Below are positions 20,241 to 44,457 of a stretch of 64,000 nt of DNA, piece by piece (positions within the stretch are counted from its first letter, which is position 1; each line of letters begins with the position of its first letter). The stretch is taken from positions 154,957 through 218,956 of the forward strand of contig JBBIML010000008.1 of assembly GCA_037444405.1 (NCBI GenBank), read 5' to 3'. Made by a program: the position numbers and the translations under genes. The stretch is from Armatimonadota bacterium. Lineage in GTDB: Bacteria; Armatimonadota; Fimbriimonadia; Fimbriimonadales; GBS-DC. The notes below the pieces were generated by a model that saw only the letters and a program-made list of their open reading frames with translations, searched no databases and was not told where the DNA came from.

Positions 20241-20271
20241 ATTATACCCCATCGCCATGCACGACTGTCAA
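20241..20271 (-). promoter_or_regulatory. sigma70-type promoter of the tRNA-Leu/Val operon
   Basis: TTGACA(20271-20266)-N19-TATAAT(20246-20241), 11 nt before tRNA-Leu. Confidence 0.75.
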
Positions 20272-41034: not shown

Positions 41035-42204
41035 ATGCAGGCACAACGAGCAATTCTCATTGTAATGGATGGGTGTGGGGTGGGGGCGGCGCCTGATGCG
41101 GCGGAGTATGGCGACACGGGGGAGAATAGCCCCAACACGCTGGGGCATCTAATGGAAGCGGTCGGCGGGCTGAACCTGCCCTGCCTGCAGTCGCTGGGAC
41201 TGGGCAACATCATCCCCCTGAAAGGGGTGCCGCCCGCCGAAACGCCCTGCGCCTGCTTCGGCAGGGTGCAGCCCTGCTCTAAAGGCAAAGATTCGGTTAC
41301 AGGGCACTGGGAGATGATGGGCATTCTCACCGAGCAGCCGTTCCCCACCTATCCGAACGGCTTCCCGCCAGAGCTGATTGCCGAGTTTGAGCGGCGCATC
41401 GGGCGCAGCGTGCTGGGCAACTATCCCGCGTCAGGCACCGAAATCATTAAGCAGCTGGGCGAGGAGCATCTGCGCACGGGCTATCCCATCGTCTACACCA
41501 GCGCCGACAGTGTGTTCCAGATTGCGGCGCACGAGGCGGTTATCCCCGTCGAGGAGCTGTATCGCATGTGCGAGATTGCCCGCGAACTGCTTCAGCCGCC
41601 GCATCATGTGCAGCGGGTGATTGCTCGCCCTTTTGAAGGCACCGACGCCAGCAACTTCCGTCGCACGGAGCGACGGCGCGATTTCCCGCTGCCGCCACCG
41701 CCCAACCTGATCGATCGCCTTGCCGAGCGGGGTATCGGCATATATGGGATTGGCGTCGTGCCCGAAATCTTCACTTATCGCGGTTTTAGGCACGCCGAGC
41801 GCACGCAGAGCAATCCCCAGCATTTTGAGGCGCTGCTGAGGGCGATGGCGAGCGACTGTGCCTTCATCTTCGCCAACTTCGAGGATTTCGACATGCTCTA
41901 TGGACATCGCAACGACCCTGCGGGCTTCGCGCGGGCGTTAGCCGAGTTCGATATGATGCTCTCGACGATTCTGGAGCGGCTCCGACCCACCGACCTGCTG
42001 ATATTGACGGCGGATCACGGCAACGATCCCACCACGCCCAGCACGGATCATTCGCGCGAGTATCTGCCCCTGTTGCTCTACTCGCCTTCGATTCAGCGGG
42101 GCTATGCGGTGGGCACGCGCCGCTCGCTGGCGGATATTGGCGCGACGATTGGCGCGTTATGGGATGTGGCGGTGGAGGCGGGCGTGCCGATTCAGCTTGC
42201 CTGA
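41035..42204 (+). CDS. deoB: Phosphopentomutase
   Basis: DGCGVG, GKDSVTGHWE, YTSADSVFQ, YGHRND and TADHGNDP..TDHSRE motifs. Confidence 0.97.
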   Translation: MQAQRAILIVMDGCGVGAAPDAAEYGDTGENSPNTLGHLMEAVGGLNLPCLQSLGLGNIIPLKGVPPAETPCACFGRVQPCSKGKDSVTGHWEMMGILTEQPFPTYPNGFPPELIAEFERRIGRSVLGNYPASGTEIIKQLGEEHLRTGYPIVYTSADSVFQIAAHEAVIPVEELYRMCEIARELLQPPHHVQRVIARPFEGTDASNFRRTERRRDFPLPPPPNLIDRLAERGIGIYGIGVVPEIFTYRGFRHAERTQSNPQHFEALLRAMASDCAFIFANFEDFDMLYGHRNDPAGFARALAEFDMMLSTILERLRPTDLLILTADHGNDPTTPSTDHSREYLPLLLYSPSIQRGYAVGTRRSLADIGATIGALWDVAVEAGVPIQLA

Positions 42205-42821
42205 TCGGGCAATGTCGCCCGCTCCTGCTCGCTCAGGTGGAGCTGCACTTCGGCGTCCGCCAGCTGAATCACCGTGTGTTCATTGCTGTTGCGCAGCTCT
42301 TCGATAATCGCGTCGATCTTTTCGGGGGTGAGCCGTCGGCAGTAGATGTCGCCCACCTGCATCACGGGCGCGTCGCCACAGTTGTTGAGGCATTCCACTT
42401 CGGTCAGCGTGAACAGCCCATCGGGTGTGGTCTCGCCCAGCTGGATGCCGAGCTTCTGCTGCAGATATTCCAGGATTCGGTACGCGCCGCACAGCATGCA
42501 GCTCAGGTTGGTGCAGACCTCCAGCATATATTTGCCGACGGGCTGCTTGTTATACATCGTGTAGAAGGTGGCGACGCCTTCCACTTCGGCGCAGGAGCGC
42601 CCGAGCCGATAGGCGACTTCGGCAATCGCTTCGGGTGGCAGGTAGCCGCCGTACTCGCGCTGGGCAATCCAGAGGGCGGGCAACATCGCCGACTTGCGGT
42701 CGGGATAGTGCTGGAGGATCAGCTCCAGTTCACGAATGGCGCGTTCAGAGAATCGCAGGGTCAGCTCCTGCGGGCGTGGTGGGCGCAGTTGCGCCGAGAG
42801 CCGAATCGGTTGCTGTTCCAT
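42192..42821 (-). CDS. nuoE: NADH-quinone oxidoreductase subunit E-like [2Fe-2S] protein
   Basis: YPDRKSAMLPAL, VATFYTMY, CTNLSC and ECLNNC motifs. ATG at 42821 lies 7 nt after TACAAT. Confidence 0.9.
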   Translation of the reverse strand: MEQQPIRLSAQLRPPRPQELTLRFSERAIRELELILQHYPDRKSAMLPALWIAQREYGGYLPPEAIAEVAYRLGRSCAEVEGVATFYTMYNKQPVGKYMLEVCTNLSCMLCGAYRILEYLQQKLGIQLGETTPDGLFTLTEVECLNNCGDAPVMQVGDIYCRRLTPEKIDAIIEELRNSNEHTVIQLADAEVQLHLSEQERATLPDQAS

Positions 42822-42856
42822 CGCTGGGATTGTACCTGATAGGGCGGGCGTCGAAT

Positions 42857-43182
42857 AAAAAGAGCCCGAGCGAATCGGTCTGCCCTTTTCGGTTCCGCTT
42901 GGCTTGCTGCCGTCCTGCGGACTCGGTGCCCCGACCGACATTGCTGCCGATCCTGAGGCGCCGCCACTCCACGAGTGAGCAGCAGGCTTCGGGCGGTTCC
43001 TATCCGCCGTTCACGCGCGCCCAACACTGGGGCGCGGGCTGCGCGTGTTGCTCCCTGCGCGGTCTCTCCATCGCCTGCCCGTCGCCGGCGCAACAGGCAT
43101 CGATGGCTCCGAGCAAGGCTCCCGACGGCAGGGACACCTGCCTTCGCTCGGGCGACGGTCATCGAGTTTCCCCGATAACCGC
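42857..43182 (-). ncRNA. Unidentified large structured RNA (~325 nt)
   Basis: Consensus promoter immediately upstream; stacked hairpins with GAAA/GCAA tetraloops; G-U pairs only on this strand; 11-bp closing helix followed by a U-tract; no credible ORF. Confidence 0.7.
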
Positions 43183-43186
43183 TCCT

Positions 43187-43216
43187 ATTATACCACACCG
43201 ATGACGGCTTTGTCAA
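43187..43216 (-). promoter_or_regulatory. Consensus sigma70 promoter driving the structured RNA
   Basis: TTGACA(43216-43211)-N18-TATAAT(43192-43187) with extended TGG. Confidence 0.85.
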
Positions 43217-43334
43217 GGGGTCGAGGGGGAATCTGGGGTTTTTCGAGGGCGAATCGGGGGAAATTTCGGGCAAAATCGGGGGGTTCTGGCGCTCGAAGCC
43301 GTCGCGCGAGCGCGCATGGGGTACACTCTGGGGG

Positions 43335-43856
43335 ATGGCGGAGGCGAGTCAACCAGTACGGCGGGCAATCTACCCTGGTAGCTTCGACCCGCCAACGATG
43401 GGGCATCTGGATGTCATCACGCGGGCGGCGCGACTGTTCGACGAACTCATCGTCGCGGTCGCCATCAACAGCGACAAAAAGCCCCTCTTCAGCCTGCAGG
43501 AGCGGGTCGCCATGCTGGAGGAGTGCTGCAGGCATCTGCCGAATGTGCGCGTGATGCCGCTGGAGGGTCTGCTGGCACGCTTCGCCCAGCAGGCGGGCGC
43601 ATGCGCCATCGTGCGCGGGCTGCGAGCCGTGTCCGACTTCGAATACGAGTTCCAGATGGCGACCATGAACCGCCAGCTGGCGCCCGAAGTGGACACCTGC
43701 TTTCTCATGACGCATCAACAGTACGCCTTTCTGTCGTCGTCCATCGTGAAGGAGGTGGCGCGGCTCGGCGGCGATGTGAGCCAGCTGGTGCCCCCCAATG
43801 TGCTGACCCGCCTGCAACAAAAATTCGCCTCACCATCGGCAGGAGACGGTCTCTGA
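43335..43856 (+). CDS. coaD: Phosphopantetheine adenylyltransferase
   Basis: YPGSFDPPTMGH, RGLRAVSDFEYE and LSSSIVKE motifs. Confidence 0.97.
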   Translation: MAEASQPVRRAIYPGSFDPPTMGHLDVITRAARLFDELIVAVAINSDKKPLFSLQERVAMLEECCRHLPNVRVMPLEGLLARFAQQAGACAIVRGLRAVSDFEYEFQMATMNRQLAPEVDTCFLMTHQQYAFLSSSIVKEVARLGGDVSQLVPPNVLTRLQQKFASPSAGDGL

Positions 43857-43905
43857 ACCGCGAATCAGCAATCCAACCCTGGTGCAAGCGACGGAGGATC
43901 GGGCG

Positions 43906-44457
43906 ATGATTAACACGGATGTCATAACTATCAGGCGATGGCTGCGTGAGCTGGATCAGATGCTGGAGAACAGCCGCAGTTTCGGACCCATCGTGTTCGG
44001 CTTGAACAAAGGCGAATGCCTGAACCTGGTTCAGCAGATTCTGGCGAATCTGCCGTCGGATCTGGACAAGGCGGAGCGGGTGCTGCGCGAGTCGGATCGG
44101 CTGGTGGGCGGTGCGCAGGTGGAGGCGCGCATGACCCTCGAACAGGCGCGGGAGGAAGCCCAGCGGATTATCGAGCAGGCGCGGCAGCAGGCGGAGGCGA
44201 TTCTGGAACGCGCCCGCGCCGAGCAGGAGCGCATGCTGGCGCAGACCGAAGTCTACCAGCTGGCAGAGGCGCAGGCACGCGAAATCGTGGAGACCGCCCG
44301 CCAGAAGGCACAGCAGATTCGGCAGGGCGCCGACGAATACGCCTATGAGGTGCTGACCGAGCTGGAGGGCGCGCTCGCCAAAGTGATGAGCACCGTGCAG
44401 AACGGCAAGGCGCTCCTGGAAGACCATCTCAAGCAACGCGTGGGCGCACGCCGCTGA
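43906..44457 (+). CDS. Coiled-coil protein (DivIVA/ATPase-subunit-like) commonly found after coaD
   Basis: LPSDL..A..., AREEAQRII, GADEYA heptad-rich pattern; SD GGAGG. Confidence 0.8.
   Translation: MINTDVITIRRWLRELDQMLENSRSFGPIVFGLNKGECLNLVQQILANLPSDLDKAERVLRESDRLVGGAQVEARMTLEQAREEAQRIIEQARQQAEAILERARAEQERMLAQTEVYQLAEAQAREIVETARQKAQQIRQGADEYAYEVLTELEGALAKVMSTVQNGKALLEDHLKQRVGARR

Follow-up and report, generated by a model that had tools for sequence, protein, structure and literature searches.

Does the minus strand of the region between two unrelated protein genes of an Armatimonadota bacterium specify an RNA gene in its own right and, if so, of what class? The region lies in a 64,000-nt stretch of DNA, hereafter the window (GCA_037444405.1, contig JBBIML010000008.1), taken from a genome of 2.68 Mb in 40 contigs that is 98.9% complete. 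It is bounded by the gene for a NuoE-type 2Fe-2S thioredoxin-like protein, which lies downstream of the putative RNA on the same strand (42821-42192, minus), and by a divergent gene for a CoaD-type cytidylyltransferase upstream (43335-43856, plus). A first-pass annotation had proposed here a highly structured transcript, either a novel class of non-coding RNA or a divergent relative of the RNA polymerase-binding RNAs 6S and Ms1. The results presented below favor the first proposal: we put the probability that the locus encodes a real stand-alone structured non-coding RNA of an undescribed class at about 0.8.

The region contains a fully consensual sigma-70 promoter on the minus strand (43187-43220), made of CCCC, TTGACA (43216-43211), an 18-nt spacer with a TG (43195-43194) located one base 5' of the -10, and TATAAT (43192-43187). 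In a promoter scan this site matched the consensus at 12 of 12 positions and was the sole promoter-like site across positions 42000-44000 (shuffle mean, 0.4). TTGACA and a TATAAT-like -10 (TATAAT, TATATT or CATAAT) are also present in all homologues for which upstream DNA is available. Only 34 perfect TTGACA-N16-19-TAYAAT sites, including this one, occur in the 2.68-Mb genome. Most of them carry CCCC 5' of the -35 and several lie directly upstream of tRNA genes; others precede mRNAs that bear a Shine-Dalgarno sequence. Since the promoter belongs to this strong class, the RNA is probably highly expressed and its transcript abundant.

Several other sites of this promoter class deserve mention. 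In the window, a perfect CCCC-TTGACA-N19-TATAAT site at ~20241-20271 drives both tRNA genes found at 20229-20069 (minus strand), and CCCC before the -35 may be a lineage-specific signature of strong promoters. Elsewhere in the genome, the perfect promoters at C9:13693-13722 and C24:34667-34696 have spacers that resemble that of the RNA promoter in a neighbouring genus (…GCGCCCTCGATGTG…). Downstream of both lies GC-rich sequence able to form hairpins, with no obvious start codon, and these promoters may direct further unannotated RNAs.

Six bases after the -10 begins a 5'-terminal hairpin of 11 bp, H0 (43156-43181, minus strand; C43181-G43171 pairing with C43166-G43156), with a GGGGAAAC core and a GAAA tetraloop. 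It is followed by the 5' strand of a closing helix, P1 (GCCCGAGCGAA, 43143-43153, minus strand), whose 3' strand (UUCGCUCGGGC, 42864-42874) is found ~270 nt further on. P1, which has 11 bp in this genome, encloses ~290 nt and runs at once into UCUUUUU, within the U-rich tract UCUUUUUAU (42855-42863). A T-rich run is present 3' of P1 in the 21 aligned homologues that retain their 3' end, the 22nd row being cut by a contig end. The U tract is probably an intrinsic termination site and the 3' end of the transcript; a terminator scan based on local hairpins reported none because the P1 stem is long-range. Judged by the positions of the promoter and of the U run, the whole RNA would cover 42857-43181 (minus strand, ~320-325 nt). 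Promoter, 5' hairpin, closing helix and U run had all been named in the first-pass annotation, and each of these sequence features was recovered at its position.

In order to evaluate the structure, the 331-nt minus-strand stretch was folded and then compared with its homologues. Its predicted energy (-186.1 kcal/mol, z -7.43) was not equalled by any of 100 shuffled sequences, and the plus strand of the same stretch gave a z of -3.57. The main alignment, made with MAFFT, comprised 22 distinct full-length homologues of 315-337 nt with a mean column identity of 73%. RNAalifold applied to 18 sequences yielded 72 pairs, 32 of which showed compensatory changes. The structure that was tested combines the RNAalifold pairs with helices added by eye and amounts to 87 pairs in 14 helices. 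On the 22 homologues, 93.2% of its cells were canonical and 38 of the 87 pairs had changed on both sides, and 0/500 shuffles reached any of five measures, this shuffle control ignoring the relatedness of the sequences. When the 3' partners were slid by 1-3 columns in the same alignment, only 32.0-43.3% of cells were paired and 9-14 pairs were compensatory. The core from P1 to P1 was turned into a covariance model, R1 (289 positions, 76 pairs), which served to realign a set of 28 rows (25 distinct). Here, 94.3% of cells were canonical and 52 of 76 pairs compensatory, against 13-19 in slid controls, in an alignment that leans to the structure of the model. All these covariation statistics rest on related sequences. 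A search for an additional covarying pseudoknot or tertiary helix returned the known helices only. The strand assignment of the first-pass annotation, which rested on G-U pairs and GNRA loops, agrees with the homologues: some pairs are G-U throughout, three of them, for instance, being GU or UG in 22/22 sequences, and these are compatible with the minus strand only.

The same alignment does not have the features of a protein-coding region. No fully open frame exists in 6 of the 22 homologues, the open frames of the remainder differ from one another, and of the 308 gaps in the alignment, 287 have a length not divisible by three. The RNA gene is non-coding. Compensatory changes above those of the controls and the lack of a coding signal are what is expected of a structured non-coding RNA, and both are found here. 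The R1 search gives one copy per genome, and a short-word BLAST search for a second copy in the genome of the window yielded chance matches only. Two long spurious open frames overlap the gene (42761-43273, minus strand, 170 codons; 42425-43204, plus strand, 259 codons) because the DNA is G+C-rich, and automatic gene callers could place a hypothetical protein at this locus.

Among the 22 homologues, H0 is 98.6% paired with compensatory changes in 4 of 10 pairs, and this hairpin also exists in the diverged forms from two other families described below. P1 is 100% paired; three of its 10 pairs are compensatory and six invariant, the former number rising to 6/10 when diverged members are included. 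Just inside P1, a tentative helix P2 (43138-43136 / 42879-42877, minus strand) has only three possible pairs in this genome and covaries in two genera (GGGA/UCCC and CAGG/CCUG). P2 and P9 are the weakest helices of the model (60-80% paired).

Two multi-helix domains follow, both on the minus strand. In domain A (42999-43132), P3 (43132-43123 / 43009-42999) encloses two arms. The first consists of P4 (43118-43113 / 43058-43053), P5 (43105-43100 / 43072-43067), which was read by eye in the window sequence only, and P6 (43099-43090 / 43085-43076). The second consists of P7 (43047-43044 / 43015-43012) and P8 (43039-43036 / 43022-43019), the latter closing an invariant loop, GCGCCCCAG (43035-43027). 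Helices of this domain are 90.9-100% paired in the 22 homologues, with 2-3 compensatory pairs each. In domain B (42895-42996), P9 (42996-42993 / 42898-42895) and P10 (42984-42979 / 42910-42905) enclose three hairpins: P11 (42978-42974 / 42968-42964), P12 (42959-42955 / 42932-42928 and 42952-42945 / 42940-42933), which bears a GCAA loop, and P13 (42922-42919 / 42915-42912). These helices are 78-100% paired with 2-4 compensatory pairs each; the registers of P9, P10 and P13 in this genus were set by eye because R1 misaligns them. Finally, P14 (CC 42892-42891 / GG 42885-42884, loop GAAAA) belongs to the nearly invariant segment CCGAAAAGG (region 42877-42892, minus strand). Invariant junction and loop nucleotides include GGGAGCC, GGAGUAAUG, GCGCCCCAG, GAUAGGAAC and CCGAAAAGG, and GNRA loops cap H0, P6 and P12.

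This architecture retains part of the pairings that had been proposed from the window sequence. Besides H0 and P1, the hairpin UGCCUGUUGC/GCGACGGGCA (now P6) and the GCAA hairpin (now P12) are conserved among homologues. A second long-range pairing between CUGCCGUC (43131-43124) and GACGGCAG (42914-42907) is indeed possible in the window sequence but is not conserved among homologues, and neither are the hairpins CGCGCCC/GGGCGCG and GGCGG/CCGCC. The strands of these three pairings belong to the covarying helices P3, P8 and P10.

The locus was compared with known RNA families. At gathering thresholds, Rfam 15 identified only three tRNAs in the whole window. A permissive scan of positions 42700-43350 with all 4227 Rfam families gave five matches at E up to 10, none of them near threshold. 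The best was PrrB_RsmZ (RF00166), with 16 bits against a cut-off of 44, and a match to "raiA-hairpin" (14 bits) is due to chance. The Rfam search suggested by the first-pass annotation therefore brought no family to threshold, and the diverged homologues are likewise without an Rfam match. RNase P RNA, tmRNA and SRP RNA were rejected as candidates, since no match to them exists at the locus and each gene was found elsewhere in the genome: RNase P RNA (RF00010) on another contig with 273.2 bits, tmRNA with 180.5 bits and SRP RNA with 167.1 bits. This bears out the earlier statement that their signature motifs are lacking. A Y RNA was also rejected, because the genome, 98.9% complete, gave no TROVE/Ro60 match. 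No published account of this RNA was found in the accessible part of the full-text literature on non-coding RNA of Armatimonadetes, Fimbriimonas or Fimbriimonadales.

The second proposal of the first-pass annotation, an RNA polymerase-binding regulator of the 6S or Ms1 type, would fit a strong constitutive-type promoter, a stand-alone gene and a size near that of Ms1. It did not withstand comparison, and we consider it highly improbable. No 6S match was obtained at the locus at E up to 10, and the consensus branches repeatedly instead of forming a long rod with a central bubble. Moreover, a full-length 6S candidate that folds as a rod lies elsewhere in the genome (contig C11:105640-105821; 30 bits against a cut-off of 46.4 for RF00013), and 18 of the family's 29 genomes contain full-length 6S candidates. 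As for Ms1, which occurs in Actinobacteria, the host studied here is one of the Armatimonadota and no Ms1-type match was seen in the scan of 4227 Rfam families, a set that may or may not include an Ms1 model. Two of the family's 6S candidates exceed the Rfam cut-off, and the Rfam model appears insufficiently sensitive to the 6S RNAs of this lineage.

In order to delimit the distribution of the RNA, homologues were sought at several taxonomic levels. The five families of the order Fimbriimonadales are coded f1 to f5 here, and the genome of the window belongs to f1. Of 41 related genomes searched at the DNA level, 19 including the window genome contain the region, which corresponds to 18 of the 24 other f1 genomes; the same search was negative for the 16 genomes from four other families. 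When 185,579 species genomes were scanned for a motif, 22 loci emerged, titled Fimbriimonadales, Armatimonadota/Armatimonadetes or, in one case, "Bacterium HR15"; 21 of them were compared with the known set, and of these 21, 17 were duplicates and four new. With R1, 151 genomes of the order were searched, and matches were obtained in 25/28 genomes of f1, 1/1 of f4, 0/3 of f2, 0/98 of f3 and 0/20 of f5 (the f5 counts including G050, an unpublished genome). One of the f1 matches was restricted to P12, at a locus that holds a reduced form of ~270 nt with H0, P1, a GCCCCAG loop, P12 and the U tract. Another f1 genome has a diverged full-length form (122.6 bits), and one f1 genome that seemed to lack the RNA has a copy truncated at the end of a contig. 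The f4 match scored 24.2 bits. This locus was accepted as a homologue because its ccccTTGACA-17-TATTAT promoter, its 5' hairpin with a GGGAAAC loop and its U run all lie outside the R1 model.

A pattern combining the promoter with the hairpin loop revealed the RNA in all three f2 genomes; five matches to a reversed-pattern control in 201 genomes were read. The f2 RNAs are ~440-470 nt long and have an H0-type 5' hairpin, GAUAGG ~52-57 nt before P12, GGCGGCAACGUYGGU and a CCGAACAAGG-like motif. In two of the three genomes the GGGGAAAC 5' hairpin is tandemly duplicated, and the long f2 forms (L135, L141 and L136) contain an additional three to four hairpins with the pattern GGGA-G(U/C)AA-UCUC. 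The diverged forms of the two other families share with the f1 RNA the promoter, the 5' hairpin, GAUAGG, P12 and CCGAA motifs. When the 3' domains of the three families were aligned with MAFFT, GAUAGG and P12 were placed in register and the 3' ends of the long forms were misplaced. Beyond P12, R1 misses these long sister-family forms, so that its negative results in other families are weak evidence.

Every match from f3 and f5 in the R1 and pattern searches, whose sensitivity is limited, proved unrelated on inspection. R1 found nothing real in 150 other genomes of the phylum, and a GAUAGG-to-P12 pattern searched in 401 genomes of the phylum gave matches in four f1 genomes and, apart from these, in a single CRISPR array. 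This array, in a genome from another family of the phylum (L267), has a 37-nt repeat that matches the pattern by chance. A global scan for P12 plus CCGAA gave 92 stretches, of which 80 were read: 14 were Fimbriimonadales/Armatimonadota copies of the RNA, and the other 66 were non-Fimbriimonadales stretches inside open frames of 130-326 codons. Various candidates were discarded: weak R1 or pattern matches that were a terminator after an L7/L12-like gene or coding DNA; 16-mer matches in the largest family (8 loci, one per genome), which were coding-like and had neither an upstream promoter nor the 5' hairpin motif; and 12 promoter-plus-GGGGNAAC matches, which lacked the core motifs and were mostly followed by long open frames. 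Within the sensitivity of the model and patterns, three of the five Fimbriimonadales families have the RNA, and no copy was seen elsewhere among the genomes searched.

This distribution bears on a further explanation, according to which the RNA is a sponge that sequesters CsrA in the manner of CsrB or RsmZ. PrrB_RsmZ is the best, if far sub-threshold, Rfam match, the RNA contains conserved GGA motifs (GGGAGCC, GGAGUAA, UAGGAAC, AGGAC and GGAUCGG) and the genome encodes CsrA (91 bits). These motifs, however, are located in junctions or helices and not in hairpin loops, and the conserved long-range architecture is unlike that of sponge RNAs. In addition, CsrA is encoded in 118/121 genomes of the order, including those of the two families in which no RNA was found (68/68 and 19/20), which means that CsrA and the RNA do not co-occur. 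A sponge function has, in our opinion, almost no chance of being correct.

The genes that surround the RNA differ between lineages. The NuoE-like gene is downstream in the window genome and in a near-identical relative, assigned as such by 98% DNA identity. Elsewhere, the corresponding gene encodes an ABC ATPase, a metallo-beta-lactamase with an Ada zinc domain, a baeRF10-family protein in two genomes of one genus, a glycosyltransferase in one related genome and a GFO/IDH/MocA oxidoreductase in f4. In six genomes of another genus, genes for a PilB-type ATPase and an HDOD protein are found, and in f2 either RNase E/G at a distance of ~400 nt or a convergent peroxiredoxin gene. Upstream genes vary too, CoaD being found only within the genus of the window. 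No neighbour recurs across families among the loci examined, which indicates that the RNA has a gene of its own and does not serve as the leader of any single pathway. A riboswitch or gene-specific leader was rejected on the ground that at least seven unrelated genes lie downstream across the lineages.

A more general cis-acting role can be envisaged, in which the RNA is a leader or attenuator and the P1/U-tract terminator sets the level of read-through from the strong promoter into the co-oriented gene downstream. Such a gene is often close: judged from first in-frame start codons, a co-oriented open frame begins ~13-46 nt past the U tract in 11 of the 13 f1 loci examined and in the window, so that read-through into the neighbour, and some cis effect, may occur. 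In the window, a TACAAT (42834-42829) precedes the ATG of the nuoE-like gene (42821-42819) by 7 nt and is not accompanied by a good -35. On the other hand, from one genus to the next the genes downstream have unrelated functions; in one sister-family genome the following gene is convergent, and in another it is ~400 nt distant. Nor do the homologues show a conserved anti-terminator pairing; the alternative to P3 that is possible in the window sequence is not conserved. With 320 nt and 14 helices, the RNA is also far above the known leaders for such genes. Taken together, a leader or attenuator is very unlikely. Between the TACAAT and the ATG of the nuoE-like gene there is no Shine-Dalgarno sequence, an arrangement that resembles a leaderless mRNA, and a similar TATAAT-N8-ATG stands before the glycosyltransferase gene that follows the RNA in one relative.

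The other proposal of the first-pass annotation, a stand-alone RNA of a novel class, is upheld by the lack of any Rfam match at or near threshold, strong covariation, the conservation of promoter and U run, and variable neighbours. As regards the life of this stand-alone RNA, the following scheme can be proposed from its predicted structure. The consensus sigma-70 promoter would drive a transcript that opens with the GNRA-capped hairpin H0 and is closed by P1, whose 3' strand enters the U tract, where transcription would most likely end. Inside P1, the transcript would fold into the two multi-helix domains, with invariant nucleotides in their junctions and loops. The released RNA of ~320 nt, its ends protected by H0 and P1, would accumulate as a stable and abundant molecule, stability being expected from both ends being locked in helices. 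It would then act in trans through its tertiary fold, most likely as an RNA that binds or scaffolds at least one protein; base-pairing with targets or control of the adjacent gene is probably not its mode. Invariant junction and loop nucleotides, GNRA loops and a constant core with a variable periphery are seen in ribonucleoprotein RNAs and in ribozymes. Within the accepted reading of a stand-alone RNA, we hold a protein-binding or scaffold role to be plausible, at slightly less than even odds.

The same features could also belong to a natural ribozyme, or to an "ornate" RNA that self-assembles; an active site or contacts between molecules would then be built from the invariant nucleotides and the GNRA loops. 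The 14 helices are arranged in two domains closed by P1 and the invariant unpaired nucleotides cluster in junctions. GNRA loops cap H0, P6 and P12, with extra GNRA hairpins in the longer sister-family forms. The core is conserved and the periphery varies (~270 to ~470 nt), as is typical of large catalytic RNAs. Yet no known ribozyme model matches, the covariation search gave no pseudoknot or tertiary helix, the distribution is narrow, and neither a cleavage site nor a substrate suggests itself. This explanation appears unlikely. The same holds, by a similar estimate, for the broader claim of a new class of large catalytic or self-assembling RNA, which would make this molecule, from one branch of Armatimonadota, a fifth "housekeeping-grade" RNA beside RNase P, tmRNA, SRP and 6S RNA; this claim is improbable, if not negligibly so. 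If true, a catalytic or self-assembling role would constitute a new kind of functional RNA.

Bacterial RNAs so large and so structurally conserved are rare, and the known ones are ribozymes, cores of ribonucleoproteins or global regulators; to our knowledge, almost no RNA biology has been recorded in Armatimonadota. With a defined gene, a 14-helix model, a covariance model and a taxonomic range, the RNA can enter the RNA family databases. Such an entry would improve the annotation of metagenome-derived genomes, in which the locus reads as a spurious frame of 170 codons.

Among known systems, 6S RNA (RF00013) and Ms1 share with the present RNA a strong promoter of its own and the status of a candidate abundant trans-acting RNA, but the present RNA is multi-branched, matches no model and coexists with a separate 6S candidate in the genome. 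CsrB and RsmZ recall it through several GGA motifs and a weak best Rfam score, and differ in that its GGA motifs are outside hairpin loops, its long-range architecture is conserved and it does not co-occur with CsrA. RNase P RNA, whose conserved regions are unmatched at the locus, is not homologous to it; the likeness is one of architecture only and comprises the size class, a terminal helix that closes two domains, GNRA loops and a core with a variable periphery. OLE and raiA-motif RNAs are large, lineage-restricted bacterial non-coding RNAs of complex fold. The present RNA differs from them in that the Rfam scan gave no match except the 14-bit chance "raiA-hairpin", in its phylum, Armatimonadota, and in having no associated protein genes adjoining it. 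It nevertheless resembles them in having a biochemical function that its sequence does not disclose, in being encoded on its own by a gene a few hundred nucleotides long, with many covarying helices and conserved unpaired positions, and in being confined to one bacterial lineage.
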